Assembly (NCBI GenBank): GCA_000004695.1
Contig: CM000152.2
Location: 992,001 to 1,056,000 of the forward strand
Source of the DNA: Dictyostelium discoideum
Taxonomy: Eukaryota
Direction of reading: 5' to 3'
Length of the DNA stretch: 64,000 bases
The notes under the pieces were generated by a model. The model was not told where the DNA came from. It saw nothing but the letters and a program-made list of their open reading frames with translations, and did not search any database. Positions 3,255 to 63,569 of the stretch are shown here, piece by piece (position 1 is the first letter of the stretch; each line of letters begins with the position of its first letter). Made by a program: the position numbers and the translations under genes.

Positions 3255-4064
3255 ATGATAACCTCATATGTATTCTCGAGAATTATAATAAAAGGAAATA
3301 CAAGTAAAATTGTAAATTCTTTTTTATTTTCAAATAAATGTAATAATAATAATAATAATAGTTTTTTGAATAATGAAAATAAAAGTAATAGTTTTATTGG
3401 AAAATTTCTTTATCAGACGAAATCATTTTACACAACAAATAAAGACGATAATGAAAAAGTAAAAAGTAAAATAAAGAAATCAAAAAAATTAAATAACATA
3501 AATGGTACTAGTATAAAAGATGAAGAAAAAAAGAAATTAAAAGGTGCTAAAATAAAAAATCAATTTGAATCTCAATTTACTGATCCAACCATTTTCAATG
3601 AATGTAGTAATAATAATAATAATGATGATGACAATGATGAAGCAGGATATCAATTTATTACAGTTCCAACTAAATTTAAAGAGTATAATAGCAATGAAGA
3701 AGAAAATGGTGGAATAAAAGAAGATGAAGGAAAAGAAGAAGAAGATGATGAAAAAGAAGTTACTGATATTAAAGATTTAAAGAAACCTATTCCACCAACA
3801 AATTTATGTTGTGGTAGTGGTTGTGGTTCATCTTGTGTTTGGGAAGTTTATTTCAATGAAATGGATGAATATAATAAAAAATTAAAAAAAATAGATCCAA
3901 ATGCAAAAGAGTTACCACCCGATACTTCTGATGATAATGAAGATCCTATGCAATATTTCTTAAAGATGGAAAGATATAATTCAATGCTACAAAATAAGAG
4001 AGAAGAAAAACAAGAAAAAGAAAGAGAAAAAGAAAGAGAAAAAGAAAGAGGAAAAAATAATTAA
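3255..4064 (+). CDS. OXLD1-like protein (oxidoreductase-like N-terminal domain), Asn/Lys/Glu-rich
   Basis: Motif PPTNLCCGSGCGSSCVWEVYFNEM matches the conserved CC-x-SGC-x-x-CVW core of the 'oxidoreductase-like, N-terminal' domain (human OXLD1). Single exon, 269 aa, with a C-terminal (KERE)n repeat. Confidence 0.55.
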   Translation: MITSYVFSRIIIKGNTSKIVNSFLFSNKCNNNNNNSFLNNENKSNSFIGKFLYQTKSFYTTNKDDNEKVKSKIKKSKKLNNINGTSIKDEEKKKLKGAKIKNQFESQFTDPTIFNECSNNNNNDDDNDEAGYQFITVPTKFKEYNSNEEENGGIKEDEGKEEEDDEKEVTDIKDLKKPIPPTNLCCGSGCGSSCVWEVYFNEMDEYNKKLKKIDPNAKELPPDTSDDNEDPMQYFLKMERYNSMLQNKREEKQEKEREKEREKERGKNN

Positions 4065-8911: not shown

Positions 8912-9707
8912 TTAATCATATAAATCGGAATCATTTTGATCACTTGAATAATCAATGATATCACCATCATTATCATAACCAATATCATAACCAGAACAAG
9001 TACCAACAGTGTAATCAGAATCACCACTAAATAAACCACCGCTAGTTGATAATGATAATTTTGCAGTTACAGCATTATTTAAATTTGTTATTGAGGATGA
9101 AGATGTTGATAAATCTAATTTACCATTATTTTGATTTTGATTTTGATTTTGATTTTGAATTTGGTTTTGATTTTGTTGTAATGGTACTAAGAATTTTGGT
9201 ATATTTGCAATTGGTAAATTTTGAATTATTGTTAAGATTTGATCAAACGAGGGTCTATTATTTGGATTTTGATCCCAACAAATTTGAATTAAATTTGACC
9301 ATCTATGATCAATAGTTTGAGGTAATGGAGGTCTTTCAGCATTTGCAATTTTAAAAGAGGCAGCTATTTGTTCATAATCATGAAATGGTACTCTTCTAGT
9401 GAACATTTCATATAGAATCATACCAAAACCAAATACATCAACTTTTTCACTATACTTTTGACCTTTGGTCACCTCTGGTGATCTAAATCTTGGATTACCA
9501 ATTGATGTCATAGTTTTATCACCAATATCATTCTTAAATCTTGATATACCAAAATCTGCAATCTTTGCAATACCATTTCTATCAATTAATATATTTTGTG
9601 ATGTTAAATCTCTATGAATAATTTGTGGTTTCAAACTATGTAAATAGTTCATACCATTTGCAATATTTAATGATAATGTATTAATTGATGGTAATGATTG
9701 AATTATA

Positions 9708-9740
<33 letters not shown>

Positions 9741-10312
9741 GCACCAGCACCACCAATTGGTATAGTATTTAAAATTGTATACAAACTACCATTATCACAA
9801 AATTCTAATACTAATAATAATTCTTTTTCTTCTATACAAGTTGCATATAATTTTACAAAACTTGAGAAATTTGATAATTTAACCATCAAGACTGCTTCCA
9901 ATATAAATTTATCTCTAATCCATTGATAGGATTTACCAGATTCCAAGATTTTTTCAATTTTTACTCTTTTAACAGCAACATTTTTATTTCTCCATTCCAC
10001 TAAATATACATCACCAAATGCTCCAGCACCAATCTTTCTAGCGGTTTTAAAATTAAATTCCTCTTTACCAACTATATAACCTTCATATTTTAATAACTCA
10101 ATTGCGATTGTAAAATGATTATTTAAAACTAATAAATCAATTGGTGTATTATTCTCTTTATCTGGTATTTGAATTGATTGTTGTTGTGTATTACCACCAT
10201 TTGAAATTCTTAATCCACCAACACTACTACTATTTGAATTTGTAAGATTATTAGAATTATTTTGTATTGTTGTTGCTGTCGTTGTTGTTATTGCTGTGGT
10301 TGTTGTTGTTGT

Positions 10313-10349
<37 letters not shown>

Positions 10350-11057
10350 GAAGGTAATAATGTGGTAGAATTCATTTTTGAATATAGTTCTAAAAAATAT
10401 CTAATTAAATCAATATTACCATTAACACAAGCATTATGAATTGGGTATCTACCATTCAAATTATCAATTGATAATCTTGCACCAGAATTTAATAAAATTT
10501 TAGCCAATGATAAATTACCACTTAATGAAGCTAAATTCAGTGGTGTATTATTACTTTGATCCAATGCATTAATTGTTGAATCATCTATTAAACATTTTAC
10601 AACATCTACATGACCATTTAAAGAATGATAATGAATTGGTAACATTCCTTTATAATCCATATCATGAATATTACAACCCAATTGTAATAATAGTAATGTC
10701 ATCTCTCTAGTAGTTGAATAAAATAATGCTGATCTATTGGTAATTGGTAATTTACAATTTACATTGGTAATATTATACACGTTTGGTAAAATTGATAATA
10801 AAAATCTAACTAAACTACCACCACCAATAACTTTTACAATTGCAAAATAAATTGGATAAACTTTTAATATATTCTCATTAAATGGTGGCACCATTGTTGT
10901 TGTTGTTGTTGTTGTTGTTGACGTTGAAAATTGTAAACATTTATTCAAATTTATTAATTCATTTTGTGTTGGAATTTGTTGATTGAATTGTATATTATAA
11001 CTATTATTTGCTAATAATCTATTACTATTACTAATATTACTAATATTATTATTATTG

Positions 11058-11100
<43 letters not shown>

Positions 11101-11325
11101 AATTTATATTTGATAGAATAAAATTTAATAAAAATAATAAAATTTGATCTTGTGAATAAATGATTGAAAAACAAATGATTCTATCTAAGGTTGATAATTT
11201 TTCACCTCTTAAAATTGTTATAAATAAATCATTATTATCTAAATATCTATGTAAATTAAATTTACATTGAATTAAAAAATTTAATCTTTCTGATATTACA
11301 CTAAAATTATTTTTAATTAATTTAA

Positions 11326-11392
<67 letters not shown>

Positions 11393-11638
11393 ATTATTAT
11401 TATTATTAATTATATTAATCCAATTTGGATTTAATTTCACTTTAATTGATAATAATTTAAATATTTTAATATAAAGAAAAAGATAATTTTTATTTATTGT
11501 TGAATAAAAGTAATCATCCTTTATAATGTTTATATGAAATTCTCTATTTATTAATGATAATGAATAAATGTCATTATCATTTATATAATTATTTAAATAA
11601 AGTATTGCTAAACTTTCTATAATTTTATTATTTGACAT
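8912..11638 (-). CDS. Ankyrin-repeat-containing TKL-family protein kinase (908 aa, single exon)
   Basis: Kinase subdomains IGAGAFGDVYLVEWRNKNVAVK (Gly loop and VAVK), HRDLTSQNILID (catalytic loop), IADFGISRF (DFG), and SPE...DVFGFGMILYE. N-terminal ankyrin repeats (LPIHYHSLNGHVDVVKCLI, TPLNLASLSGNLSLAKILLNSGA, YPIHNACVNGNIDLIRYFL). Poly-Asn/Thr tracts. Confidence 0.85.
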
Positions 11639-14467: not shown

Positions 14468-15144
14468 TTAAAAGGTTTCACTTGGTTTATACATTTTTGA
14501 AACTTGAATTATACCAGTCTTATACTCAGGATTTTTGAGGGTATCTTTTAATAATTTTTGACAACTTGGAAGGAAAGAGATGATACGATAAAAGGTAGTA
14601 ATATTTATTAATAAACGTTGATCAATTTGAATGCCTTCAGTATTTTCTGTGAGTTTCTTATAGATCATGTGGAATTTAATGAAACATGAACGTTCTACAA
14701 AGAAATTTAATAAGGACTTGACATCTTTTTCACTGTATTTAGTATCGATTGACAAAGTGCCAGGTGCACGAAGTGCATTTTTTCTAGTTTCATAACTAAC
14801 CAAACTAAATAATTTACTTAGGTAATGTAGTGCATTTGTTAAAACTACATTACCAGCATTCAAACTGATTATATCCATTAATGCATTTAAATATTTACTC
14901 TTCTCCAAGTATTCAATATGACCATGATGGAATCTTATCATTTGAAAGAATAATCTCCAAACATTACGATTGAATTCAACATTCTTACCATCTCTACATG
15001 CTGGAATTAAAAATTTATTATAAAGATTACCTTCTTTTTTAATTGAATCGAAAATTTCTGATTGTTTTAATAATTGTCTTAATGCAATTAACATATCTAA
15101 AAATAATAAATGATAATAATAAAAATTTTAATTAATAATTTGTA

Positions 15145-15223
<79 letters not shown>

Positions 15224-18200
15224 GGTTTTTTTTTTTTTTTTTTTTTTTACTTACTTGTTTTAATTATTGAACAATATCTATTATTATCAAGTGAAGAATT
15301 TTGTAAAAAACCTATAATTTCAAATAATAAAGTTGGAGAAATAGCAACACCAGTTTCAACATCGTTTTGTTTCTTTGGATCAACTTTACCACCACTTTTA
15401 ATGCTATCACTATTTTTGAAAAGATTAAATTTAGCTAAAACCTTACAGAGTGAAGCGAATACTTTTGAAACGATTTGTGTACTTTGAGTGAAATTTTTAC
15501 ATTTTACAATTGCATTACAAAGTTGGAAAAAGATTGAATCATTCAATATAAATTTGTAGATTGGTTTTGGAATTGGTGTACTATTGATATTCTCTAAAAC
15601 TCCAACACAGAAATTAAATGTTAACTCAGAGATGAGACTAATGGAAGGTATTGCTAATTTTGGACCTTCTTTCATTGTGGTTAGATCTGTTAAATGTTGA
15701 GATTCATTCTTTTTAATACTTTCAGCATATGAAGCCATTAAAAACTCCTTCCAAGGATCTTCTTGAAGAATTTGATATAATCTTTTAGCTGCGAATCTTG
15801 AATGTGAGAATTTACTTGCTGATAAATCACGGATATGTGTCAAGAGTTCACCTTTTAACAATGATTGAACCGTTGGTGATTCAGACATTTTAATTAATTG
15901 AATCAATACAAAGAGGAAACAATTGCTAACCAAAATTGATTTTCTACCCAATGCTTTAAATATTTTATATAAAAACTCTCTATCATTTTGAAATTGAATA
16001 CCAATTCTTTCGGCTGCATCTTTTCTTGAGGAATTTACAAAACCAAGAATACCAACATTGTTTGAAAAGAAATTTAAACGCTCTTGAATTATACCTAAAT
16101 AATAATATACAAATACCAATCTGACCACTTCTTGTGTTGAACCTTTAAAGATGGATGGTGTTAACATTTCATTCAAATGGGTTGGATAAGTGAATAGATC
16201 CAATGGTACAGCATCAAAGAAGGAAATGGCACGTGCCAATCTATAGAGGGATTGTAAATCTTTTGAAAAGAGAATATTTTCAATGACCATTGTACCCTTT
16301 AATTCAGAGGTTAACACCAATAATACCAATGATGATATTTTTCCAAGTGCTAATTTCTCATTGGTTAGATCCAAAAATTTAAGTAACTCTGGGAAACTAT
16401 CGGTATTGATCAATGAAAGGAATGTATTACTACTAACACTTGGTGTATTTGGATGTGTACTAATACTACCACCTGAATGACTTCTTGGTGATGAACCACG
16501 CTCCACTACTGCTGCCAATTGTGATTGTGTTCTTGGTGATTCCAATGAACTTGAATTGGTTGGTGAAATTTTACCACCACCACCTGGTGAACCAATGAAA
16601 CTAAATGAACCTGTTGAACCTTGACGATTTGGTGGTGAACTTAACAATGATGAGCCACTTGGAATATGTGGTGACGATGGTGGTTGACCACCTCCAATAC
16701 TACTACTACCAGGACGAACTATATTTGGTGAAGTACCTGATGAAGTGGAAATACCACCACCGCTGGCACCCCCACTACCACCCCCACTACCACCACCAGC
16801 ATTGATGAAAACTGATGGTACAATTGCTGGTAACATTGGTATGGCTGGTGCATATAATCTTAGATCCACTTGATCGAATGTCTCTTGAAATTTATCTAAA
16901 AAGTGGGCAGAGTTATTAACCAATGACCAAACACCATTTTGTAAGTCAAATCCTGGTGCTGCAACCAACTGTTCAATATCTAATTTCTTCTCTTGTAGCT
17001 CCATTGGTGTGTAACCGCCTTCACTCCAACTATTTAATGCATCCAAACGAAAACTAAATTGTAATCTCTGTTCATAGGTTTGAAGTATCTTTGTATATTG
17101 ACGTCTATCTTCTTTGGTACCAACATTGGTGGTATTGTTAATGGAATGCATTGCAATATAGTTTGCTGTCTCTTTATCTTTATCTTTTTCACTTTTTCCA
17201 CTTGATCCACTTGTACCACTCATATTTAAACCACTTCCACTGCCACTACCAGAACCACTACCACCACTGCCACCACCAGAACCACCTTGTTGTTGGCCAC
17301 CAGTTGCTGATGATAAACTATGAGCGGTTGGCATTTCAAGCATACCTAAAAAGTATTGAAGATTCATATCTGGTGCTAATAGTTTATTGAAATTAATTGG
17401 TAATTCTGGTATTGGGAAAGAATGTTCAACACGTTTACCATCTGCCTCACTATTAATATCGAGACGACGTAATGCTTTCAAAGATAATGGTGGTAAGATC
17501 GAGGATTTCTTTGATACTGATTCTCTCCAACCACTTTGAATGTTTGGCATTAAAAAGTGATTTGCCCAAAGACCACCTCTAAACCAAGTGGAGGTTTGAC
17601 GTTGAATCGTTAACTTCTTTCTATACCAACGATCAATGGTTTCTGTAATCTTTAATTTTTCATCGGAATCTAAAGTTTTCCAAACTTGTGATGGTGGTAA
17701 CTCTTGATCGATTGAGAACAAATGATCGTACTCTGTATGCTTCAAATTGGATTGTGATAAAATTCTATTGAATATCATTGTTTCCTCTGTTATAATTGGA
17801 CGAATGATTGGACGAAGTGTCCAATTGGATTGATTCTTTGCCATTTCAAAATCCATTTCCAACATATGTCTTGCTGATCCACCCAACTGATGATTACCAC
17901 CAACACCATCTACCCCGCTTCCACCACTACCACCACCACTACCATCATCTGTTGATAATTCTGAATTCTTTGGTAATTGAATGAATTGACCTGGATGAGG
18001 TGGAAGGATTGAAGTTTTAGTGATAACTTCATGTGCCCAATTCTTCATGGCATATTCATACTCTTCATAGGTTGAGAATAAATCTGGATGTGGTTCAGTT
18101 AGAATCAATTGAGAATCCCATGGGTCCTTTTGAAGGAACCAACTCTCATGATCCATACCAAAACCTGAACCTGATCTACCCATTTTACCATACATTGAAC

Positions 18201-36304: not shown

Positions 36305-39300
36305 CTAATTTTTCATTTTTTTTAATTTTAAAGGTTTAATATTTCTAAGGTGATATTTATATTTTTTTGCCAAGAAAATGGAAATTGTAATTAAAATTGC
36401 ACAACCAACACATCCTAAAACAATTCCAATGATGGCACCAGTTGATAATTTATTTTCACTATTTTCTTTACAAATTGAATTTGCTGAATCACTATCTAAA
36501 AGAATACCAAAATCAGGGTCTAATTGAATTAAATTTTTATAATATGGTATTGATATTGCAATTAGAGATTCTGATGAATAGTATGTAGTACTATCATCAT
36601 CATCACTTTGACCATTTAGAATAATATTATTAATAGAATTTAAATTACCATCAACTATTGCTCTTTTAATAAATCTACCATATAAACTATTATCATTGAC
36701 TTTTAATTGTACATAATTTGAATTATCATTAACAGTTTCACCAAAATCTTTAGATGAGCATGAATTATAATCAATTTCATTTGAAATTGCTTTTGCTTGA
36801 ATAATTAATTGTAATGTATTTAATTGATTTTCAAATGGATATGTTGTAATGTTTATATTATATTTCAATGATGATGGGTTCATTATTAAATTTTGATTTG
36901 CAAATGTAATATTTGTTGTACTATTAAACCATTCTGTAATTACAGTTGTTGTACAATTTAGTTTTGTATTATTATTAAAAGAGGTTTCTAAATTTACTAT
37001 ATACTGATATCGATTATCTTTTAATTTTGTTTGAATCCATTTATCAAATTTATAAGTTTTAATTACATTATTTTTAAAATCTAATTCTCTTAATGATACA
37101 ATTGAAACTAGTGCAGTGAATGATAAATTATCGTCACTTCCATTTGAAGGTTTGGTTATATTTATTGATGGTTTAGTTTCATTTAATTTTGGTGGTGGTA
37201 CAATTACAACCTTTGATTGACATGATAAGCCAACCCATGGTGAATAACAAATACAACCAGTTGATGAGCAATAACCTTGTTTTGAACCACCACATTGGGG
37301 ATTACCTTTACATACTTGAGGACTATTTGTTGGAAGTGGAGTTTGAGTTTCCACTGGTGGTGGTGGTATGAATAAAATTGGGTTAATTAAATATTCATTT
37401 GATATAACACCTTCATATGAAATGATTTTAATAATAAATGGATATTCAGTTTCTTTAATTGCTATTGTAAATGCTCTTGAATATGTTGAAATTGAATCAA
37501 TTGCCTCGAATATATTACTATTAAATCCACCATTTAAATAATTTATATAAACTGTTTGATTTTGGTTAAAACCAATTCCATATAACCAAATTTTACCACC
37601 ATATGAATATACATCATCATGTGAAGTAATGATTGGATTATTTAATGAAAATGTTGTATTTAAATAGTGTTTATTATTTCCTACCAATAATAAATCAGAT
37701 GTTGGATAACCAGCAAAGTAACCATTTTTATATCGTAAACCATAAATTGAAATAAATATTGGACCAGGGTACCCAAAACCAATAGGAATTTCAGTTTCAC
37801 ATATATATCTAATACCACCTGCTATTATTTGATAAGTTGGTGCATCACATTCAATTAAATCTAATGTTGGACTTGTTAAATAAAAAATTGGAGTTAAATT
37901 ATAGTTGAAATTATTTTCATCTGTTAAATTAAATGTAGCACTTATTGTCACTGATCTATCTGTTAATTTACCAACATCAATAGTTTGAGTTGAAAGTTTT
38001 AAATCTATTATCACTGGTTTACCAGTTACTGTTGGATAACTTGAAGAACATGTAATTGGTAAACGTGTAACATTAATACCATCATTGTAAAAATTAATAA
38101 ATGGATTTGAAATTGATTTTTGGTTCTCTGAATAGATATTATAAATTGATGGTATTTTATTGGCATCTAATAAAGTAACATGGATAATTACAAATTCTTG
38201 TGAAATACATGTTTCATCAACTGGAATATCAATTTTATAAGTACCATTCCATTTATCACCATATAGTAAATCATTTAATGTTAAATTAAAATTATAAATT
38301 GAATTATCATTTGAACCCATTACTTTAATAAACCCACTTTCAAATCCATTATAATCATCTAAAATTCTAAATGTCCAACCAACAAAATCAGACCCACTTA
38401 TATTATCAATATTATTTTTTTTTATAATTAAACTTATTAACGGACCTTGATTATCTAAATATGTTTCATTTACTCTAAGTTGTGCTGAACTTGATAATAA
38501 ACTATTATAAATCTTTCCGGTTAATGAAAAAAATATAACATATGGTATTTCACCAAAAATATTATTTGATGGTATTATAAATTTGCATTCAAATGATTCA
38601 ATATCATCATTATAATTAATTGGATATCTAATATTTTCATTAATTGAAATTGAAACTGGATCTAATAACATTAATGACATTGGTACATCTCTTTTTAATG
38701 TATTTGATTTAATATACATAATATTATACCCAGTATTATTTAAAAGATTTAAATCATTAATTGAAAATGAAATATCATTAAAATCATTTAAATTAAATTC
38801 TATATATAAAAAAAAAAAAAAAAAAAAAAATTTTAATTTAATAAAGATTTTTTTTTTTTTTTTTTTTTTTTAAAAAATTAAATTAATAAATTAAAAATAA
38901 TACAAACTATATGAAATAAATGGTGAAGTAAATTTTGAAATTGGATTTAATGAAATAATATCAAAATTATTATATTCAACTTTGTTTCTAACTCTATCAA
39001 TTAATTGAATTTTATTAAGTGATCTGGTTGATAAAATTATTTCATAATCACCTTCAAAAAGATTACCACTTACAAATGATTCTAATCCAATTTTTTCGGT
39101 TGAACCAGAGTTTGTAAATGAATTTATTTGAAATAATTCATTTATTGAAACAATGTGAAGTTTTAATAAATACTTTAATGGTGATAATTGTAAAATTGTA
39201 AAATTTGTTAACTTTGGAGGAGTGGTATCACCTTTTTATTTTTTATTTTATTTTTATGATTAGTAAATTTTAGTATTTTTTTTTTTTTTTTTTTCAACAT

Positions 39301-40145
39301 ATTACGTACCTGAAATTATTGGAATCGTTGAGGAAAGAATAGTTGATGAAGTCACTGGTTTACATTGTAATACCATTTGTTCATTTTGAATTGTATTAAC
39401 AAAGCCTGAAACACAAATTTTAAAATTTGAGTTATAACCCGAATAAAATCCAAATGGAAATCCTTTAATTAATTGATTTTCATTTATTGAATAAATAAAT
39501 TCATTCAATTTGTAATTTGCATTAAAAACATTTAATGTAACAACATTATTATCCAATCCATGTACTAAACCTACTAATTCAGTTGGTAAATACTCTGCAA
39601 AGAAAAAATATATATACATATAAATTGTTAGTTTTTTTATATGTAAAGTTTTATTTTGTTTTTTTTTTTGTTTTGTTTTTATTTTTTATTTTTTTTTTCC
39701 TAAAATGTTAAACAATTATTATTATTATTATTATTATTTACATACTATTAATAATTAATGAATCATAATTAATTTGGGAACTATATGGACCAGCTGGTGA
39801 GTTTACTGTAAATTCAGTAGAATTTATACCATTAAATGGCTCATTTTCAATAAAACTACTGATAAAAACCATATCTTGTTTTTTACCACGTATTGGTGTT
39901 CCATAATATGATAGATTCCCATTACTAATAACAAAAAATGGTCTATTTGAATTTGAAAGTACCTCTCCAATTAATAAAGGTCCAAATCCAAATCCAAATT
40001 CATTTATTATTGAACTAATTTCCTTTGGTAAATAAACCACATTTTGAAAATGATTAGGTGGAGCTGGAACTAAAATTTAAAATTTTAAAAAAAAGTTAAA
40101 AAATATATTTAACATTTGAAAAAAAAATAAAAAAAAAAATAATAA

Positions 40146-40217
<72 letters not shown>

Positions 40218-40520
40218 TTACCATCATTATAAAAAGATTTTGTTTTAAAATAATTTCCACCAAAAGAATCAAAAATTTCAATTGACCATTCCCCTTTTAA
40301 ATGATCTGGTATATAGTATGGACTCCATTTGATTAAATAAAGATCAGAATTCTCTATTGATTCAATGATTCCAACAGTTTCATCAGTTAAAAAAGTTTTA
40401 GGTTTTACTCCATCAAATCCTTCAATTTTTAAAAATGAATGAAAATTTTCAAAATCATTATATCCTGGTCCATTACCAATAATTTCAGGTTTTGTTTTAT
40501 TAAAATCAATTTCTGGAAAT

Positions 40521-44083: not shown

Positions 44084-45737
44084 TGTGAAAAAAAAAAAAA
44101 ACCCAAAAAATAATAATAATAATAATTAGGCAGGAGCAGAAGTAAATGTATTAAATTCAAGAGGTGAAAGTCCACTTCATTTTGCAGTTCGTCTTGGTAG
44201 AGAAGATTTAGTATCAGTTTTAGTTAAAGCAGGAGCAGATATTACAATTAAAGGAAATGAAAAGAAAACATGTTATGAGTTATCTTTAACGATTGGGAAT
44301 CAAAGAGTTATAAATTTTTTAAAGAATGTTCAAGATATTTTCAATTGGTTGAAATCAATAGATTTGGAACAATATTGGTTAAATTTTGTAAAGGAAGAGA
44401 TATTTATGGACTTACTATTGGATATTGATGAAAGAACATTGGATTCATTAGGTATCACCTATAGTGGTCATCGTTTAAAAATAATTAGAAATTGTAGAAT
44501 ATTAAGAGATCAACAACTATTGAGTACTGCCAATAGTAATGTTACCACAGGTAGTGGTAGTAGTGGTTCAACAACAACAACCACCACCACTACCACCACC
44601 ACCTCTGGTTGTGGTGGATTAAATGTACCAGAGAATAAAAAGGTAACACAATTATCAATCGAATCATTAAAATCAAATCCACCAAATAGTATGGATTCAA
44701 CTGGTAGTATTAGTTCAGATGATTTGAAAGAGTCATTGACAAATCTTGAACATTGGGTTATTGATCACTCAGAGTTGGAGTATACATTAAAATTGGGTAG
44801 TGGTAGTTCAGGTAAGGTTTATAAAGGTTTATATAAGGGTAAGGAAGTGGCAGTCAAAGTATTGAAATCAATCACCACTCAATCACAATTGGAGGAATTT
44901 AAAAAGGAATTTCAAATTATGGGTTCAATTCGTTCTCAATTTATGGTAACATTTTATGGTGCATGCATTGAACCAAAACTTTGTATGGTCATGGAGTATT
45001 GTAGTCGTGACTCATTGTATCATGTAATGAACACCAAAAAGTATGACATTGGTTGGGACAGATTCTTTCAATTCACCATGCAAATGACATTGGGTGTACA
45101 GTGTCTTCACAATTGGACACCTCAAATTGTACACAGAGACTTTAAGAGTTTAAATCTTTTGGTCAATGAAGATTGGGAATGCAAAGTTTCAGATTTTGGT
45201 CTTAGTCGTTTTAATACCGCCGATAATTTAGAAACACTCAGTAAGATTCGTGGTACCTTTGCCTATTGTTCACCTGAAGTCGCCGTAGGTAATGGTAGTC
45301 TCTACACTACCAAATCTGATATCTACAGTATTGGTATCGTCTTTTGGGAATTAGTAACTCGTGTTATCAATGGTGAATACTCTCGTCCCTACAGTGAATA
45401 TTCTCACATCAAAATGGACTTTCAAATCATGTTAAACTCAAAGGAAGGTTTAAGACCAACCTTACCTCAAAATACTCCACCTGGTCTTGAAGCACTCTAC
45501 AAACAATGTGTAAACCAAGAACAAACCTTAAGACCAAGTTGCGAAGAAATCATTGAAACTTTAAATCGATTGAGACATGAATATATGTCTTCAAAAACTA
45601 CTTGGGATTCTTTAATTAGAAAACTACCATCTTTATCACCACCACCTCAACCAACTACTACAACAACAACTACTACTTCTTCTTCCACTTCAACAAATAA
45701 TATAAATAATAACATAAATAATAACAATAATACTTAA
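42770..45737 (+). CDS. Ankyrin-repeat + SAM-domain + TKL-family protein kinase (about 848 aa). Exons 42770..43395, 43546..43858 and 44130..45737
   Basis: Donor AA|GTAAGT at 43396. Acceptor tttag|A at 43545/43546. Donor GAT|GTATGT at 43859, chosen over GTAAAC at 43841 because it completes an ankyrin repeat (TPLHKSIFNNTVRLLMVNMLLDAGAEVNVLNSRGESPLH). Acceptor aattag|GCA at 44129/44130. SAM-like segment LEQYWLNFVKEEIFMDLLLDIDERTLDSLGITYSGHRLKII. Kinase motifs LGSGSSGKVYKG...VAVKVLK, HRDFKSLNLLVN, VSDFGLSRF, CSPEV. Confidence 0.8.
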
Positions 45738-54297: not shown

Positions 54298-57200
54298 TTA
54301 TAATGGACAATCATTATTTTCTTGAAGTTTTTCAAATTGTTGAGGATTATTTAAATTTTGTTGTTGCTCTTGATCAAAACACATTAACATTGAAATAAAG
54401 GTTAAAATCATTTTAGGTTTAACTTCAACGAGATCTTCCCAAACTACAAATATACAACAACCTATCTTTCTAGCAACATTAATGATGTATTGAGCATTTA
54501 ATTTCTTTTCTTCAAAAGTTTCACCTTTGGTAATGATAGAATAGTTTACAACACTTTGAATTGAATCTAATAGATCAATCAAAAAGATACCATTACCAAT
54601 GGATTGATCTTTGAAACCAGTGATACAAGTTGATTTACCATGTTTTAAAACCTTTTTATTTGCCCATTGAATAATTTCACCTTCATTAAAGAATGAAGAA
54701 GTTGAGGAGGTGGAGGAAGAACTTAGAGATAAATCACCACTTGAGGAATCCTTCAATAATGATAGACGTAAATTTGTCAATAAAGATAATAAATGATATT
54801 TACAAGCTTGCCAAATCAAAGCCAAAGTTAATTTACGATTACCATCATGAATATCTTTACCACCAATACCAACGAGAGAGAAACGTAATTGTTTTGCAAT
54901 GGATATCCCATAGTTGCAATTCTCCAATGCCATATATGCATTTGAAGGTGAAATATTAACCTCTTTCCAATTGACAGAGCCAGATTTAATTTTATCAAAC
55001 ATTTGTAAAATGACTAAACCATCTTGAAGATCCTGTTGTAAATTATTAACATAGGGTTTAATGTTCAAAGAGTTCATCCACATACAGAAAGCACGTTCTT
55101 CTCTTGTACCTTCAACATCTAAATTTACTTTTTCAACCAAAGCACGTTGTTCTTCGATTACTTTAGTCGAAGATTCCGAAGCTTTTATACCAATACCTTT
55201 CTCTGATTTGAAAATACTTGAAAGGAATAGATAAATTAATTTTTGATTTCTATTTTGAATTGATTCTAAATTTAACCATTGGAATATATTAAAAGTTTGT
55301 TTAGATTGTTCAATGATCCATTTGAATTCATCAGATTCTTTTGATTGTTGGTCCACTGATGATTGTTGTAATAGAGCTGTACCACCATTTGCTGCCAAAT
55401 CTTTCTCTAGCGATATGAATAGTTTAATTAAATTCGAAGGTGACGAAGCCAATTGATCCAATGATAGTTTTGTTTTATCTAAAGCTAAATGATAAATGAA
55501 CCAACGTAACAATAGTTTATTAGTTGATTGAACGATGAAATGTTTCATATCTTCATGAGTTTCTTTTAAAACCAATAGAGTTGGATAAGTGTTTATATTG
55601 ATTGAAGATGTTATTTGAACTTTAACCAATTCATATAATAGATTAACCATTTCTTTTGGATCAGATTTTAGAGTTGTAGGTGAGATAGTTGATGGTATAA
55701 CACAACCGATTGCCTTTGCAGAATTGAAAACCAAATTTAAATTTTGATCGATTTCAATGTTACTAGTTGGTTCAATGTTTAAAACTCTTTCATCGATTGT
55801 ACCATCACGTGCAAAATTAACCAATTTACAAAGTAATACACCATCATAGAATGAATGAATGATATGTTTAGTTGAATCTATTGGGAAAACATGTTTAATA
55901 TGTTTATCTACCAAGAGTTGTTCAATCGTATTGACATAGTTAATCAATGGTTCTTCCTCTTCAATATAATAATCTTTTGATTGAGTTGGTTTAACTACTC
56001 TATTGATTTGTTCTTGAATTTGTCTCTTTTTCTCTTGTTCCAATTCCTCTTGTTTCTTTGCATCCATTTGCATTGATAGCTCTCTCTTTAATACTTGATG
56101 TTTTCTAGTTTTCTCTTCAACTTTAACTTGTAATGCTTGATTTTCACTCTTTAATTGAGTTAATTCAATTTGAATAGAATCAAATTCCTCTTTTTTATCT
56201 AATAACTCTACAATTAATAATTCAGATTTCTCTTTATCTTGTTGATGTTGTGTAGTTAACTCTTGAATTTGTAATTTCAATTGTTCAATAATTTGTTCAA
56301 ATTCAATAGTTTGTAATAATAATCTTTTAATCTCTAAACATTTCTCTTTATAATTTTCACCCATTCTATTAAATTTCAATTGATAACACTCTAATGAATT
56401 ATTAAATGAATCTAATAAATCATTGAATCTATCATTTAAACCATTTGAAAGTAATAATAAATTTGAATCACATTTACTATGAATATCAGTGATTGTTGAA
56501 AATTTCAATTGTAATTCTACTAAACTATCATTTAATTGATCAGTTTGAATTTGTTTATCTTGTAATAATTTATCTTTTTCTTGTAATAATTGTAATCTTT
56601 GTTGTGATTCTAATTCTAATTGATTAAATTGTGACATTAACTTTTCCAGTTCTTTATTTAATTGATCTTGAGTTAATTTAGAATTTGAAAGATCAAAACG
56701 AATAGTTTCAATCTCTTTTTTCAATTGAATTATGATTTGATCTTTTTCAACAATTGAACTTTCAAATTGTTCAACTTTATTAATTGAAGAAGATTCCAAT
56801 GATCTAATGATTGATAATTTCTCTTCGATTGAATCTAATTTCTCTTTGATGATTTTATCTTTATCGTTTGTAACCGATTGAAGCTCATTAATTGAAGTGG
56901 TTTGATTAGTAATGATCTCAACTTTCTCTTGAATAGTTTGGTCACGATCTTTAATCAATTGTTGTTTCTCTTTAATTAGGTCATCTTTTTCTCTAATCAA
57001 TTGATCTTTAGTGGAGGATGTATTCTCCAACTCTATGATATCATTGGATTGACGTTGAATCAATTCCGATTTCTCTTTTATCAATTGATCCTTTTCGATT
57101 ATCGATGATTCAAACTCTAATATCAATTGATCCTTTTCATGTAACTGCTTAGTTTTAACTTTAATTTCTAAATCTTTTTCAATTAATTGATTCTCTTTAA

Positions 57201-58056
57201 CCTCTAATAACTCTTGAATGGAATGAATTGATTCAACATGTTTACCAATGACAAAATCTTTCTCATTAATTGATTGTTGAATAGACTCAATGATTTTATC
57301 TTTTTCATTTGATTTAAATTCACCAACCAATACCAATTGGTCCAACTCTTCAATACGTGTTAAATATTCTTTAATTAACTCTAATCTATCTGATAATAAT
57401 GTTTCCAAATCAACGATTTTAACTTGAAATTCAGATTTAATTTCAAAGATTTCTTTATCCTTATCTTGAATACTCTTTTGTTGTTGAATTGAAAATGATT
57501 GTAACTGTTTCTCCATCTCTTCTTTAATTAATTTAATCTCTTCTTCATGTTTTTGTTGTTTAATTTCTTGATTTTCAAATATATTTGATTGTCTTAATTC
57601 ATCTGCTAAACTACCAATAATTGTACAATTATCATTTGTATTATTATTATTACTATTGTTATTGGTAGTAGTATTATCACTACCATTACCGCCATTAATT
57701 AATTGTTGTTGTAATTGTATATTCTCTAATTGTAATTGATCGATTTGATCCTGTAATATTCTATTATGAGATTGAATTGATGAGAAATTATCTTGAAATT
57801 CTTGATTTAATTTATTCAATTCTTTAATTTTCATTAAAAGTTTCTTCTTTTCTTCTTCTTCTTCACCACTCAATTCTTTAAATCTTTTATTTGAATCATA
57901 TTTTGTATATTTATTAATTGAAATTATACAAATTAACATATATAATGCTGATTTTGAATCACTATTTGTATTAATTGATTCAAATGAATCATTTAAACCT
58001 GATAAAATTGAATTATTATTATTATTATTACCGCTAAAATTTGATTCTTTATTCAA
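54298..58056 (-). CDS. Coiled-coil protein ending in a complete fimbrin/plastin-type actin-binding core (4 calponin-homology domains). Very probably the C-terminal part of a larger gene continuing from 58062..60275
   Basis: C-terminal ~500 aa: EERAFCMWMNSLNIKPYVNNLQQDLQDGLVILQMFDKIKSGSVNWKEVN (fimbrin CH3-like) and KKLNAQYIINVARKIGCCIFVVWEDLVEVKPKMILTFISMLM (fimbrin CH4-like, the EDLVEVKPKM motif), plus two upstream CH-like segments. About 700 aa of heptad-rich coiled coil precede them. The ORF-track start is TTG, and the first ATG lies ~38 codons in. Confidence 0.8.
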   Translation of the reverse strand: MNKESNFSGNNNNNNSILSGLNDSFESINTNSDSKSALYMLICIISINKYTKYDSNKRFKELSGEEEEEKKKLLMKIKELNKLNQEFQDNFSSIQSHNRILQDQIDQLQLENIQLQQQLINGGNGSDNTTTNNNSNNNNTNDNCTIIGSLADELRQSNIFENQEIKQQKHEEEIKLIKEEMEKQLQSFSIQQQKSIQDKDKEIFEIKSEFQVKIVDLETLLSDRLELIKEYLTRIEELDQLVLVGEFKSNEKDKIIESIQQSINEKDFVIGKHVESIHSIQELLEVKENQLIEKDLEIKVKTKQLHEKDQLILEFESSIIEKDQLIKEKSELIQRQSNDIIELENTSSTKDQLIREKDDLIKEKQQLIKDRDQTIQEKVEIITNQTTSINELQSVTNDKDKIIKEKLDSIEEKLSIIRSLESSSINKVEQFESSIVEKDQIIIQLKKEIETIRFDLSNSKLTQDQLNKELEKLMSQFNQLELESQQRLQLLQEKDKLLQDKQIQTDQLNDSLVELQLKFSTITDIHSKCDSNLLLLSNGLNDRFNDLLDSFNNSLECYQLKFNRMGENYKEKCLEIKRLLLQTIEFEQIIEQLKLQIQELTTQHQQDKEKSELLIVELLDKKEEFDSIQIELTQLKSENQALQVKVEEKTRKHQVLKRELSMQMDAKKQEELEQEKKRQIQEQINRVVKPTQSKDYYIEEEEPLINYVNTIEQLLVDKHIKHVFPIDSTKHIIHSFYDGVLLCKLVNFARDGTIDERVLNIEPTSNIEIDQNLNLVFNSAKAIGCVIPSTISPTTLKSDPKEMVNLLYELVKVQITSSININTYPTLLVLKETHEDMKHFIVQSTNKLLLRWFIYHLALDKTKLSLDQLASSPSNLIKLFISLEKDLAANGGTALLQQSSVDQQSKESDEFKWIIEQSKQTFNIFQWLNLESIQNRNQKLIYLFLSSIFKSEKGIGIKASESSTKVIEEQRALVEKVNLDVEGTREERAFCMWMNSLNIKPYVNNLQQDLQDGLVILQMFDKIKSGSVNWKEVNISPSNAYMALENCNYGISIAKQLRFSLVGIGGKDIHDGNRKLTLALIWQACKYHLLSLLTNLRLSLLKDSSSGDLSLSSSSTSSTSSFFNEGEIIQWANKKVLKHGKSTCITGFKDQSIGNGIFLIDLLDSIQSVVNYSIITKGETFEEKKLNAQYIINVARKIGCCIFVVWEDLVEVKPKMILTFISMLMCFDQEQQQNLNNPQQFEKLQENNDCPL

Positions 58057-58061
58057 TTTTT

Positions 58062-58117
58062 CTAATAAATATTTTTTGAATTATTCTTATTATTATTAAT
58101 ATTATTATTATTATAAA

Positions 58118-58157
<40 letters not shown>

Positions 58158-60275
58158 ATTATTAATATCTTGAATTGTGGAATATAAATTATTGGTATTA
58201 TTATTATTATTATTATTACTTGAATAATTTAAAGATATTGAATTTGAATCATTTTCTAAAAATGAAATTAAAGTTGAAATTAAAGAACAATCATCTAAAT
58301 TTATAATTTCAGATTCTAAACGTGATAATAAAGAACGTGCATCAGAGAGTACTCTAAGATTTGTAATTTTTGGAGTTGATGAAATTAATTCTTCATTTCT
58401 AATTAAATCATTATAAGCAGATTTTAAAATTAATTCAGGATTTTTAAGTGATCTTGATTCTGGTGATAATTGAGTTTGTTCAACTTGAATTTGAAGTTGT
58501 TTATTTTTTTGACGTAAAAGTTTGACTTTACTCTTTAATTTTTCAAATTCACTCTCATCGATTTTTGTATCCAATTGATACTTTAGATCATGTACACTCG
58601 TTTGTAATGACTCATTTGCATTCAATAGTCTATCACGATTTTTTATTAATCTACCCTGAGACGATTGCAATCCCTCCACTGCCAATTTCAATTCCTCAAT
58701 CTCCTCTTTCTGTTGTTTAATGGTTTTAGTTTTCATTGGACTATTGAAATCAATGATTGATTTTAATTTACTATTCTTTTCATCCAATTGATTTGATAAT
58801 TCAAATTCTTTGAAAACCAATATCTCATTCTCTTGCTTGGCCGTCGAGACTTGGTTAGAGAGGAACGCATTCTCGTTCTTTAATTTATCAACCTGTTCAT
58901 TGAAAAGTTTTAAACTCTCATTCAAAGCCTCTTGCTCTTGTAGACGTTGTTTCAATGCTTTCATCTCCTCTTCCAAATCTTCATTCTTTTCCAATAATGA
59001 TTGACCAATCTCTGCTGCAACTCTTGTATCTTTTTCTTTCTCTTCCAATAGTTTCTCAGTTTGTTCTAAAATTACCTTATGATCCAATTTAAACATCATA
59101 GTATAGGATTTATTCTTTTGAACATTTAAATTTTTAAATGGTGTAAAATTTTGGAATTCTCTTTTAATTGTACTACCATTATCAATACTACCATTGTTAT
59201 TGCTATTGTTGCTATTCTCAATTTGTTGTGATCTCCTTCTACCAACAATTGATGAAATTGATTTAGTTCTTCTATAATTTGATCTATCAAATCCTTCATC
59301 ATTTTCTTGTTGATTTAATGGTGTCATTGGTGGTGACATACCAGTTGATGATGAAAGTGGTGATCCATTATTATTCTTTGGTGTTGTTGTTGTTGTTGTT
59401 GTTATTGTTGTTGAATTATTAAAATATACAGTACCACCATTAAATTGATTTGATTGTGGTGTTTGTTGTGGGGTTTGTTCAGATGTATGTGATTGTGATG
59501 GCTGTGATTGTGATTGTGGTGGTTGTGGGGTTTGTGGTGTTTGATTCATATACAATTGTTGTTGAGCTGGTGTTAATTTTGTACTTTGTCTATTTGATTT
59601 TTTATTATTATTATTTGTAAATTCAGAAGGTGAAATATTTGAAGGTGGTGATAAACTACCTTGTGGTGAAAATGTTGTACTCTTTCTATGAGGTGATTTA
59701 TTATCTTGTTGCATATGTGAAACTAATTTACTATTTAATTTACCATATTTAAATAATGGTTGAAATTCTTTTTGATTTAATTTCCTCTTCAGTCTAAGAT
59801 AGGATGTCTCCTTTTGATAATGTTCAACTGTTAAATTCTTAATTTCTTCTGCTGTTAAATATTCATTCTCTTCCAATGATAATTCATTAACGAATGAATC
59901 ATATCTTTGATTTCTTTGATTTCTATATGTTTCAATATCTTTATAATATTCATTCATCCATTTTTTCAATATAATTGTATTATTATTATTATTATTATTA
60001 CTATCTATTTTTGATTTTACATTTTTACTATTATTATTAGTATTAGTATTAGTATTGGTATTGGTATTGGTATTGGTATCTTCATCTGATGAAGAGTCAC
60101 TTTCAATTTCATCATCATCAAAATTATCATCAAATATTGTTACACCTGTAAATAATGACATATCAATTTCTTTGACGGCTGTTTGATTGCTTAAATTTGA
60201 TTGATCCATCGCTGTTGTTGTTGTTGCTGATGACGATGTCGTAGTGTTACTAGTCGCCGTTTCTGTTGTCTCCAT
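58062..60275 (-). CDS. Ser/Thr/Asn-rich plus coiled-coil protein (737 aa). Likely the N-terminal portion of the fimbrin-like gene at 54298..58056
   Basis: ATG at 60275 (METTETATSNTTT...). The C-terminal coiled coil is followed by an Asn-rich tail ending ...NKNNSKNIY* at 58062. The next ORF on the same strand begins 6 nt later, offset by one nucleotide. Confidence 0.6.
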
Positions 60276-60792: not shown

Positions 60793-60855
60793 TTATTTTT
60801 TATTCCGCATCACATTAACAAAAATATTTTTATTTGTTTTTTTTTTCTTTAAAAA

Positions 60856-63569
60856 ATGGGACCAAAAAAAAACAATAGGAATAAATCCAAAAATAACACC
60901 AATACCACCAGTGTTAAGCCTAAAGTTGATGAAGAAATTTTATCACAAGATCCAGTTTCAACTGAAGATACACCAACTCTTTTATCACCTCCATCAGAAA
61001 TTACACCAGATGAACCATCTTCAATAGTTGAAGAGAATAAAAAACAAAATAATGATAATAATAATAATGAGAGAAAAGATAATATAGTTGAATCTGTTGA
61101 AGAAAAAGAATTAATTTGTAATAATAATAATAATGAAAATAAAGATGAAAATAATAATAATAAAACTACAACTGCTACTACCACTACCACTACCGCCACT
61201 ACAAATGTAAAATTAGAAAATAATAATAATAATAACAATAATATAAATAATGAAATTAAAGAAATTATTAATGAAGATGATGATGATAATAATAATAATA
61301 ATGAAATAAATAAAGATTGGAAAACATTATATTTTATAACAAGTAAACAAATGAATTTAGAAAGAATTAAAACTGAAACATTAGAAAGTTTAATTATTCA
61401 AAAGGATAAAGAGAATCAACAATTATTGGAACAAGTTACTAGATTAGAAACAGAATTATTAACTGAAAGAAGAAGAATCAATAGAACCGTTGGTACAATT
61501 AGACATGGTACAAGAAAACTTTTAAGTACTGTTAAATTTGATCATAATATTGATATCGCTTCAATCATTGATGATTTAAATAATATTGACTCCTCAATTT
61601 CTGCATCACCCTCATTCGCTGATGACTTAAATTTAACATCTGCTTCAATCCTAAATTCAAATAGTAATAGTTTCTCTGATTTCAGTTCTGATCAATTATT
61701 AAATAAATTGAATAGTTATCATAATTCATCTTCATCTTTAAATAGTAATACTAATAATAATAATAATAATAATAATAATAGTCATCACCATCATCATCAA
61801 AATAATAGTATTGAACGTTCAATTAATTTAAGTAATGGTCCTAGTATTGGTGGTACAATTAGATTATCAACATCAACTAATTCTGTTAATTCAATTAGTG
61901 TTGGTAGTGATTCCGGTAATAATGCAACCACTACTACTGCTACTACTACTGCAACCAATACCAATGCCAATGCTACATCAACAACATCAACATCATTATC
62001 AACAACAACAACAACAACAACTACAACAACAGCAACATCACCAACCATTACAATTAATCCACCACCATTACAAAGGGATTATATTGAATGTATTACAGTT
62101 GTACAATCATTAGTTAGAAGATGGTTAGCAAGAAAGAGATACAAGAAATTAAGAACCAAGAGAGCAATCGTTGAAGAATTATTTGAAACTGAATCAACCT
62201 ATGTCAATCATTTATCAAATCTTTTAAAGATTTTCATCAATCCATTAAAAGCTAAAAAAGGTGATTCAATCTTACCAGCTGATGATTTTGATCAAATCTT
62301 CTCTTCAATTCAAACAATCTATAAAACAAATTCTTACTTTTTAGATCAAGTTGATGAAATATTTAAAAAGTTTAATAAATGGTCATGTTTTGGTGAAAAA
62401 GTTTTAAAATTAGTACGTATATTTAATTTTTAAATAATAATAATAATTTAAAATATTAAATATTAATTTTTATATTTTTTTTTTGACTCTCTCTTACTTA
62501 GGTACCATTATTTAATTGTTATATAGATTATATTATAAACTTTGAATGTTCACAAAAATATTTAAAGAAAGCGTTAAGTAGTAATTCAACATTTGCAAAC
62601 TTTGTTAAACAAGGTAATGCCAAGAAAGAATTGGATGATTTAGATCTTGAAGATTTATTGATTATGCCAGTTCAAAGAATTCCACGTTATATTATGTTAT
62701 TCAAAGAGATTAGAAAGTTTACACCATTATATCATAACGATTTCAGTGGTATCGATAAGACATTGGAAGCATTCAAAGCATTTGCTCAAAAGGTAAACAC
62801 TCAATCTGGTTTCAGAAAAAAGGTTTTACAATTGGAAGATAGAATTTTAAATTATAAAGATGATATCACTTCAAACTCTAGAATCCTTTTAAGAGAGGGT
62901 CCTTTGAAATTTAAAAAATCAAGTGAATATGTATTTTTATTTAATGATATGATTTTAGTTTGTCATCCATCACATTCTAAAAAAAATAAATCAAAATTAT
63001 CATTAGGTACACCAGTAACTACTGTAAATAATAATAATAATAATAATAATAGTAATAATAATAGTAATAATAGTAATAATAATAATAGTAGTAGCAGTAA
63101 TAATAATAATAATAATAATAGTGGTAATGGTAATACACCAACATCAACAACACCAATTATTATATCAACAAATCCACCATCTTCACCACCAACTTTAAGA
63201 GAAACAACATCAAGTATGAATTTACTCGAAAACTCTCATTCATCAACTGTAGTTAATGTTTTAGGTTCAAGTAATGGAAGTAATCAATCATTGAACTCAT
63301 TGGTTGTTAATGAATTCCATAGTAGTAATGTTGATATTAATTTCAAATTCTTACAAAAATATCCATTAGATTCAAGAGTTAAAATCATTCAAGATTTAAC
63401 TGAACCAAAATTCACCGTTTTAGTACCAGACTCTTACAGTATTGACTTTTTCGCAACTACAATTGAAGAAAGACAAGTTTGGGTTTCTGAAATTAATAAA
63501 TTACTTACCGTAATTTCAAATAATTGTTTGGATAAAGCAAATTTAGATCTTATAAATTCTTTACAATAA
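60856..63569 (+). CDS. RhoGEF (Dbl-homology domain) protein with an IQ motif and a C-terminal PH-like region (about 874 aa). Exons 60856..62412 and 62502..63569
   Basis: IQ-like ITVVQSLVRRWLARKRYKKLR, immediately followed by the DH start AIVEELFETESTYVNHLSNLLKIF. Donor TTA|GTACGT at 62413. Acceptor cttacttag|GTA at 62501/62502, phase 0. The DH end LIMPVQRIPRYIMLFKEIRKFTP lies in exon 2. N-terminal Asn/Thr/Asp-rich region with a short coiled coil. Confidence 0.75.

Follow-up and report, generated by a model that had tools for sequence, protein, structure and literature searches.

A Dictyostelium discoideum locus annotated as two genes probably encodes one coiled-coil protein with a fimbrin core, its frame interrupted most probably by a base missing from the AX4 reference

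RNA-seq has shown that the reference genome of Dictyostelium discoideum strain AX4 lacks single bases within genes (PMC5282741). Specifically, Singh et al. reported an extra base in 22 of 23 reads for clcD, three wrong reference sites in DDB_G0279477, and 119 'introns' shorter than 5 bp, made by curators in 102 genes and offsetting errors of this kind, 38 of them on chromosome 3 (PMC5282741). Here we describe a locus on the minus strand, at positions 54298-60275, of a 64,000-nucleotide stretch of D. discoideum DNA (GenBank assembly GCA_000004695.1, contig CM000152.2, positions 992,001 to 1,056,000 of the forward strand; hereafter the window), which the reference annotation treats as two genes, the second encoding an 'actin binding protein'. 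Comparison with other dictyostelids indicates that this locus is one gene and that the two-gene annotation is wrong. The gene would comprise about 1992 codons, its frame broken by one absent base within 58083-58063; the absent base would almost certainly belong to the A-run at 58072-58077, where the reference has six A residues (A6) and the gene needs seven (A7). The most probable cause, which we hold with moderate confidence, is that this base is missing from the AX4 reference. A single-base omission there would have led annotators to call two genes, the second of them from an internal ATG at 57939.

The two open reading frames (ORFs) lie on the same strand with a one-base offset, as recorded in the ORF list and as described in an earlier note made from the sequence alone, whose text of the junction is exact. 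The upstream ORF (frame A) extends from an ATG at 60275 to a TAG at 58064-58062, its 3' end reading AAT AAT TCA AAA AAT ATT TAT TAG. The downstream ORF, as listed, extends from a TTG at 58056 to 54298 (1252 aa), in a frame (frame B) that is already open from 58080; the overlap between frames A and B is 19 nt. Frame B is -1 (equivalently +2) relative to frame A. Adding an A therefore equals a -1 ribosomal slip, and the +1 direction proposed in the earlier note has to be reversed; its placement of the A6 at 58066-58071 is likewise off by 6. The first ATG in frame B, at 57939, stands 39 codons past the TTG at 58056, 47 past the opening of the frame and 122 nt beyond the stop of the upstream ORF; an estimate of about 38 codons free of ATG was thus right in substance, if not in the exact count. 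Inserting one A, so that A6 becomes A7, gives an unbroken 1992-aa ORF that reads ...NNSKKYLLEKLNKESNFSG..., the seamless fusion that had been predicted. Within 58083-58063, A6 is the only homopolymer of at least four bases, and runs of at least six bases occur in 2.7% of 16-nt coding windows. In a genome of about 78% A+T, the abutting of ORFs of 737 and 1260 codons on one strand cannot be chance, and the TAG of the upstream ORF is reached solely through the frame offset.

Direct searches for the junction and its products were largely silent. A scan of metagenomes for the junction with five to eight bases at the A-run gave no match, and exact look-up in the protein collection found none of the 737-aa ORF, two variants of it with shorter starts, a 686-aa alternative-splice variant or the 1939-aa and 1992-aa reconstructions. 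When a query spanning the junction was put to a word-indexed protein search, it matched the D. purpureum protein only, D. discoideum proteins being absent from the matches. A protein search with the A7-repaired junction peptide returned no matches, the query being swamped by poly-Asn words.

The case for a single gene comes from the orthologues. An exhaustive search without profiles, with the upstream ORF as query, found relatives that match it over their N-terminal ~620 residues; in this search, the D. purpureum protein (P0001) shows 65% identity to the upstream ORF. Six dictyostelid relatives carry both the upstream-ORF half and the CH-domain C terminus of the downstream ORF in a single protein, which supports the earlier note's reading of the two ORFs as one gene of about 2000 aa. 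Relatives are 1920 aa long in T. lacteum (P0003), 1617 and 1586 aa in A. subglobosum (P0004 and P0006) and 1520 aa in H. pallidum (P0007), with a further protein (P0005) of 1799 aa. The upstream ORF is 60% identical to the D. purpureum locus and the downstream ORF 49-77%; since both halves are well conserved, an old or decayed pseudogene is not in question. The same note had proposed looking for an uninterrupted ORF in related dictyostelids, and the frame is indeed unbroken in the DNA of D. purpureum and T. lacteum at the position of the D. discoideum break. A divergently transcribed RhoGEF neighbour is common to the window and the T. lacteum locus, lending support to the orthology of the locus.

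Conservation extends across the break and reaches just upstream of the annotated start of the second gene. In an alignment of the orthologues (A1), invariant blocks flank the break, CSLI..L..[FY]LE and LN[DE]S.ES...[KQ][SA]AL[YF]M; residues L125, N126, S128, E130, S131, A141, L142 and M144 are identical in all species aligned. The orthologue-conserved peptide LSGLNDSFES…SKSALY precedes the ATG of the annotated downstream protein. Because the invariant LN.S.ES...AL.M block precedes the only ATG available to frame B, this frame must be entered from upstream. The translation of 54301-57939 (minus) is identical to the 1213-aa 'actin binding protein' XP_642432.1 / EAL68445.1 / Q54XX0, which is placed on a 6.36-Mb record. 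The annotated start at ATG 57939 is, as judged from the alignment, evidently an artefact.

Two independent tandem genes, an upstream gene followed by the 1213-aa protein from ATG 57939, would reproduce the reference annotation, in which XP_642432.1 / Q54XX0 is given exactly so, and D. purpureum also has two models. The D. purpureum split, however, is a read-through of the first model into the gene's own intron (...YM-VCT-stop), all other species have one protein, and the 122-nt gap from stop to ATG is open in frame B and encodes residues invariant across dictyostelids, so that a two-gene organization is scarcely tenable. As to what broke the frame of the single gene, prior expectation favours a reference error because such faults are documented for AX4 (PMC5282741). 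The downstream frame is intact over 3.8 kb, which fits a reference error or a very recent mutation of the laboratory strain equally well. In the latter case A6 would be genuine: a real 1-bp deletion, in the AX4 lineage or very recently in D. discoideum, would end the protein at 737 residues and leave the 3' part, still intact, untranslated. Such a deletion would leave a sequence anatomy identical to that of a reference error, homopolymer slippage is the commonest mutational indel, and axenic growth may not require the gene; the intact, conserved 1260-codon downstream frame would fit a very recent event only. Conversely, the AX4 cases examined by RNA-seq trace the fault to the reference, not the organism (PMC5282741), and the 3.8-kb downstream frame displays zero decay. 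We regard a genuine deletion as possible but unlikely. Several points also weigh against a base missing from the reference. The A7 form is a reconstruction from the one-base repair. A frame-joining GT..AG pair (58219...58062) is present, and the T. lacteum orthologue has an intron elsewhere with the same GTAATA donor, making splicing at this site conceivable. Translation of 58219-58063 draws no support from homology, 72% of shuffles aligning as well to the D. purpureum linker. Furthermore, this pair was apparently left split at dictyBase, whose curators mended many errors of this kind, and the 1213-aa model still stands in EukProt and UniRef. A resemblance of 'KKYLLE', which is translated under the indel model only, to 'NNLLD' of D. 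purpureum was rejected, as 72% of shuffles score equally. The single gene, the 21-nt interval within which a repair is effective and the exon-like character of the bridging segment are read directly from the comparisons; that the fault lies in the reference sequence, rather than in the living strain, is what we infer.

Splicing and frameshifting offer two further routes from frame A to frame B, both of which take A6 at face value. A D. discoideum-specific intron, GT58219...AG58062 (158 nt, phase 1), would yield 1939 aa when spliced (...SLNYS-K-KLNKESNF...) and 737 aa when retained. The earlier note had stated that there is no GT..AG pair between the ORFs, which is true of the overlap itself but overlooks this pair, which starts inside the upstream ORF and joins the frames. 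The note dismissed the intron too quickly, and its rejection needs other grounds. Every stop-free GT..AG pair joining the frames was listed, giving 33 combinations, and the conserved residues are spared only where GT58219 is paired with AG58062 or AG58047; donors 58288, 58321 and 58336, as well as acceptors 57999, 57948 and beyond, were rejected because they would remove orthologue-invariant residues. Removal of GT58219...AG58062 connects frames A and B with no intervening stop; the segment is 93% A+T and has a good acceptor (TTTATTAG). Its size and composition are ordinary for D. discoideum, whose 17,300 introns have a median length of 103 nt, a mean of 143 nt and 89% A+T (PMC2483917). Real introns of the window also contain (AAT)n, for example 15254-15097, so that (AAT)n alone is non-discriminating; dictyostelid spliceosomes tolerate GTAATA, because T. 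lacteum uses this donor in the orthologue after ...SALYM; and the resulting linker, at 33 aa, is nearer in length to those of the orthologues (16-47 aa) than is the 86-aa linker of the A7 model. By contrast, comparison with 12 well-supported introns inferred from the window itself, whose donors are GTAAGT (5), GTATGT (3), GTACGT (2), GTTTGT (1) and GTAAAT (1), sets the candidate apart. Its donor has T at +5 and A at +6, whereas G occupies +5 in 11 of the 12 and T occupies +6 in all 12. Its longest homopolymer is 6, whereas A or T runs of 10 or longer occur in 11 of the 12 real introns; a maximum run of no more than 6 is found in 90% of 158-nt exon windows versus 13% of non-coding windows. Frame A remains open through all 155 nt, with the AAT blocks all in the Asn phase, while real introns hit a stop in the upstream frame after 1-110 nt. 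Codon log-odds (codon usage versus non-coding) reach +0.51 bit per codon in frame A, against -0.76 and -6.1 in the other frames and -0.32 to -5.2 in every frame of the 12 real introns. The WCTRAY branch motif was not found in the candidate, and its 3' end is T-poor (T fraction of 0.36 in the last 45 nt versus a median of ~0.57). Finally, the linker is intronless in all orthologues, both ancestral introns of the gene are lost in D. discoideum, and intron gains are rare in this species, with 40 putative gains versus 441 precise losses (PMC4683709). The arrival of a new, lineage-specific, weak-donor intron in a gene stripped of both ancestral introns would be an unlikely history, and we give this intron little credence; a variant in which a poly-Asn coding tract recently turned into a weak, facultatively spliced intron ('exitron') is nonetheless somewhat likelier than programmed frameshifting. 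The latter would consist of a -1 ribosomal slip at the in-register heptamer A_AAA_AAT (58078-58071 region), giving 737-aa and ~1992-aa products from one mRNA. Frame A does read TC-A AAA AAT, a canonical X_XXY_YYZ site, three codons before its stop, and frame B is the -1 frame. However, in-frame A_AAA_AAN occurs 49 times in the 29.7 kb of coding sequence of the window (1.65 per kb), any X_XXY_YYZ at 5.1 per kb, and the 122 nt downstream fold like shuffles (minimum free energy -13.7 kcal/mol, z -0.97; 37 of 200 shuffles equal). The orthologues have a continuous ORF, with neither the A-run nor a two-frame arrangement at this point. Searching the literature turned up no cellular gene of Dictyostelium that is frameshifted. 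A -1 slip at this heptamer is thus highly improbable, as is the corollary that A6 is genuine and that the cell deliberately makes both a 737-aa coiled-coil protein and a ~1992-aa coiled-coil-fimbrin protein; if true, it would give Dictyostelium its first cellular gene with programmed frameshifting. The order in which the earlier note had placed these causes, homopolymer error ahead of recent real frameshift and programmed frameshifting last, stands.

With the frames joined by the missing base, the predicted product combines two modules separated by about 600 residues of repetitive coiled coil. The last 580 residues match fimbrin structures (1pxy, E 3.4e-86, residues 28-555; 1rt8, E 1.7e-75; plastin-3, E 8e-80), and the Pfam CH domain is recognized in the downstream ORF at E 8.8e-40. 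No EF-hand family was found in Pfam at E<=0.01, and because the EF-hand headpiece is absent, the protein is not a canonical fimbrin. The N-terminal half matches PF04849 (HAP1_N) at E 1.7e-7, with 31.2 bits versus a cut-off of 33.9 and over profile positions 70-110 of 307. The same family appears in the precomputed annotation of P0001, and weak matches are seen in P0001 and P0004; all orthologues and the short matches P0008-P0014 align in this block. A search of PDB sequences with the N-terminal coiled coil gave no match, and a literature search on Q54XX0 returned nothing specific. Taken together, these features suggest that the protein would form a long coiled-coil dimer, one end of which bundles or binds actin while the other carries a motif resembling that of motor adaptors. 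The pairing of a HAP1/TRAK-like motif with a fimbrin core appears from the sequences to be conserved across all four dictyostelid groups, and is undescribed in the literature searched.

The intron history of the gene bears on its models in other species. A phase-0 intron directly after ...SALYM is present in D. purpureum, T. lacteum, one A. subglobosum paralogue and H. pallidum, and absent from D. discoideum (57936/57937). To judge from the aligned loci, this and a second ancestral intron (Table 1) are both precisely absent from the D. discoideum gene, which would leave it intronless. The second A. subglobosum paralogue (P0006, locus L004) also lacks the first intron, whose donors are GTATGT in D. 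purpureum and A. subglobosum, GTATGA in H. pallidum and GTAATA in T. lacteum (LODT01000031.1). In D. purpureum (GL871036.1, L001 10001-15808), two models stand 77 bp apart, DICPUDRAFT_32303 ('partial', 695 aa) and a 1187-aa CH-domain model. They are mis-split at a canonical intron, ...TAT ATG/GTATGT...ATAG/TTA ATT TGT, into which the 'partial' model reads, and together represent one gene. The 1520-aa H. pallidum PN500 model (P0007; GL291009.1, L005 1501-7124) appears mis-predicted, as the HAP1_N-like block is missing from it and its sequence runs ...SALYM-RIENDSN. The H. pallidum DNA instead contains the conserved intron (GTATGA...AATAG) followed by LVCVVSIYKYTRYDK, and high-identity mapping of the model is confined to its C-terminal part. 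Two paralogues of the gene occur in A. subglobosum (P0004 on DF837616.1, L003; P0006 on DF837587.1, L004), one copy being seen in each other species.

Table 1. Features of the locus in window coordinates, and ancestral introns in the coordinates of the orthologous loci
Feature	Position	Strand	Remark
Upstream ORF (frame A), 737 codons plus TAG	58062..60275	minus	from the ORF list; N-terminal part with HAP1_N-like coiled-coil block
Downstream open frame (frame B), 1260 codons plus stop	54298..58080	minus	linker, ~600 aa of coiled coil, C-terminal fimbrin core
A6 run, likeliest site of the missing base	58072..58077	minus	forms heptamer A_AAA_AAT in frame A
Only interval where a single-base insertion yields one unbroken ORF	58063..58083	minus	exhaustive insertion scan
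Complete fimbrin-type actin-binding core, four CH domains (ABD1 + ABD2)	54301..56040	minus	structure-sequence matches
HAP1_N-like motif, upstream-ORF residues 407-447	58935..59057	minus	most conserved block of the N-terminal half
Conserved coding sequence LSGLNDSFESINTNSDSKSALY without its own ATG, upstream of the annotated ATG	57940..58005	minus	alignment A1
Internal Met codon taken as start of 1213-aa XP_642432.1 / Q54XX0	57937..57939	minus	lost ancestral phase-0 intron sat immediately 3'
Candidate intron, caa/GTAATAAT...TTTATTAG/aaa	58062..58219	minus	joins the frames without a stop; more probably a poly-Asn-rich coding linker
First ancestral intron	D. purpureum L001 12078-12165; T. lacteum L002 ~3416-3493; A. 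subglobosum L003; H. pallidum L005		
Second ancestral intron, downstream-ORF residue 943/944	L001 14857-14938; L002 6445-6518		absent from D. discoideum (55251/55252)

Elsewhere in the window, the RhoGEF-domain neighbour occupies 60856-63569 (plus), running toward the window end, with an ORF at 60856-62433 and an 89-nt intron at 62413-62501 (GTACGT...CTTAG). Low-complexity ORFs (poly-V/L/F, poly-Q/L) at 60849-61238 (minus), 61797-62048 (minus), 61835-62113 (plus) and 54693-54959 (plus) overlap or lie antisense to real genes; these four short ORFs are shadows of a repeat-rich coding strand, not genes. Two well-supported introns, at 15097-15254 (minus) and 40070-40221 (minus), consist mostly of triplet repeat, one of (AAT)~28 and the other of (ATT)~22. 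In this genome, triplet microsatellites are thus frequent not only in poly-Asn coding tracts but also in introns. Unrelated genes, identified from Pfam, include an ankyrin-repeat protein kinase at 8912-11638 (minus), a SAM-domain protein kinase at 44349-45737 (plus) and, at 36305-38719 (minus), a ComC-like protein containing DUF7034 and DUF7035.

For annotation, the D. discoideum upstream ORF and the XP_642432.1 / Q54XX0 model should be merged into a protein of ~1990 residues, and those of D. purpureum and H. pallidum call for the same correction. Any knock-out, tagging or quantification of the 'actin binding protein' designed from the annotated ATG uses a truncated model. Most likely, the case is a further instance of the documented class of AX4 single-base faults and involves no new biology unless A6 proves real. 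Like the AX4 reference-error genes (clcD / DDB_G0278639, DDB_G0279477 and those with the 119 tiny introns), it combines, in the same genome, a conserved ORF, a one-base offset, intact downstream domains essential to the family and a distorted annotation. Unlike the tiny-intron genes, the locus was split into two genes and has no 1-3 bp pseudo-intron, and its missing base is predicted, whereas that of clcD is seen in RNA-seq reads. Going by dictyBase numbering, the clcD identifier presumably points to the same chromosome region as the present locus. With -1 programmed ribosomal frameshifting sites such as retroviral gag-pol and mammalian PEG10, the locus shares a canonical in-register heptamer ahead of the 0-frame stop and a long -1 frame after it; unlike them, it is followed by no structure, the site is unconserved among relatives, and the motif is frequent by chance in A-rich coding sequence. 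Over a stretch of 41 residues (aa 407-447), the protein resembles the HAP1_N profile of the motor-adaptor coiled-coil proteins HAP1 and TRAK (Milton), but the score is sub-threshold, 40 of 307 profile positions are matched and the remaining architecture is unrelated to theirs. The closest described relatives of its other end are the fimbrins and plastins of A. thaliana (1pxy), S. pombe (Fim1, 1rt8) and D. discoideum itself (FimA); the last 530 residues of the protein align with the whole length of their four-CH core. Canonical fimbrins, however, are ~600-650 aa long and begin with EF-hands, whereas the present protein, at ~1990 aa, has ~1400 N-terminal residues carrying the HAP1_N-like motif and long coiled coils instead.

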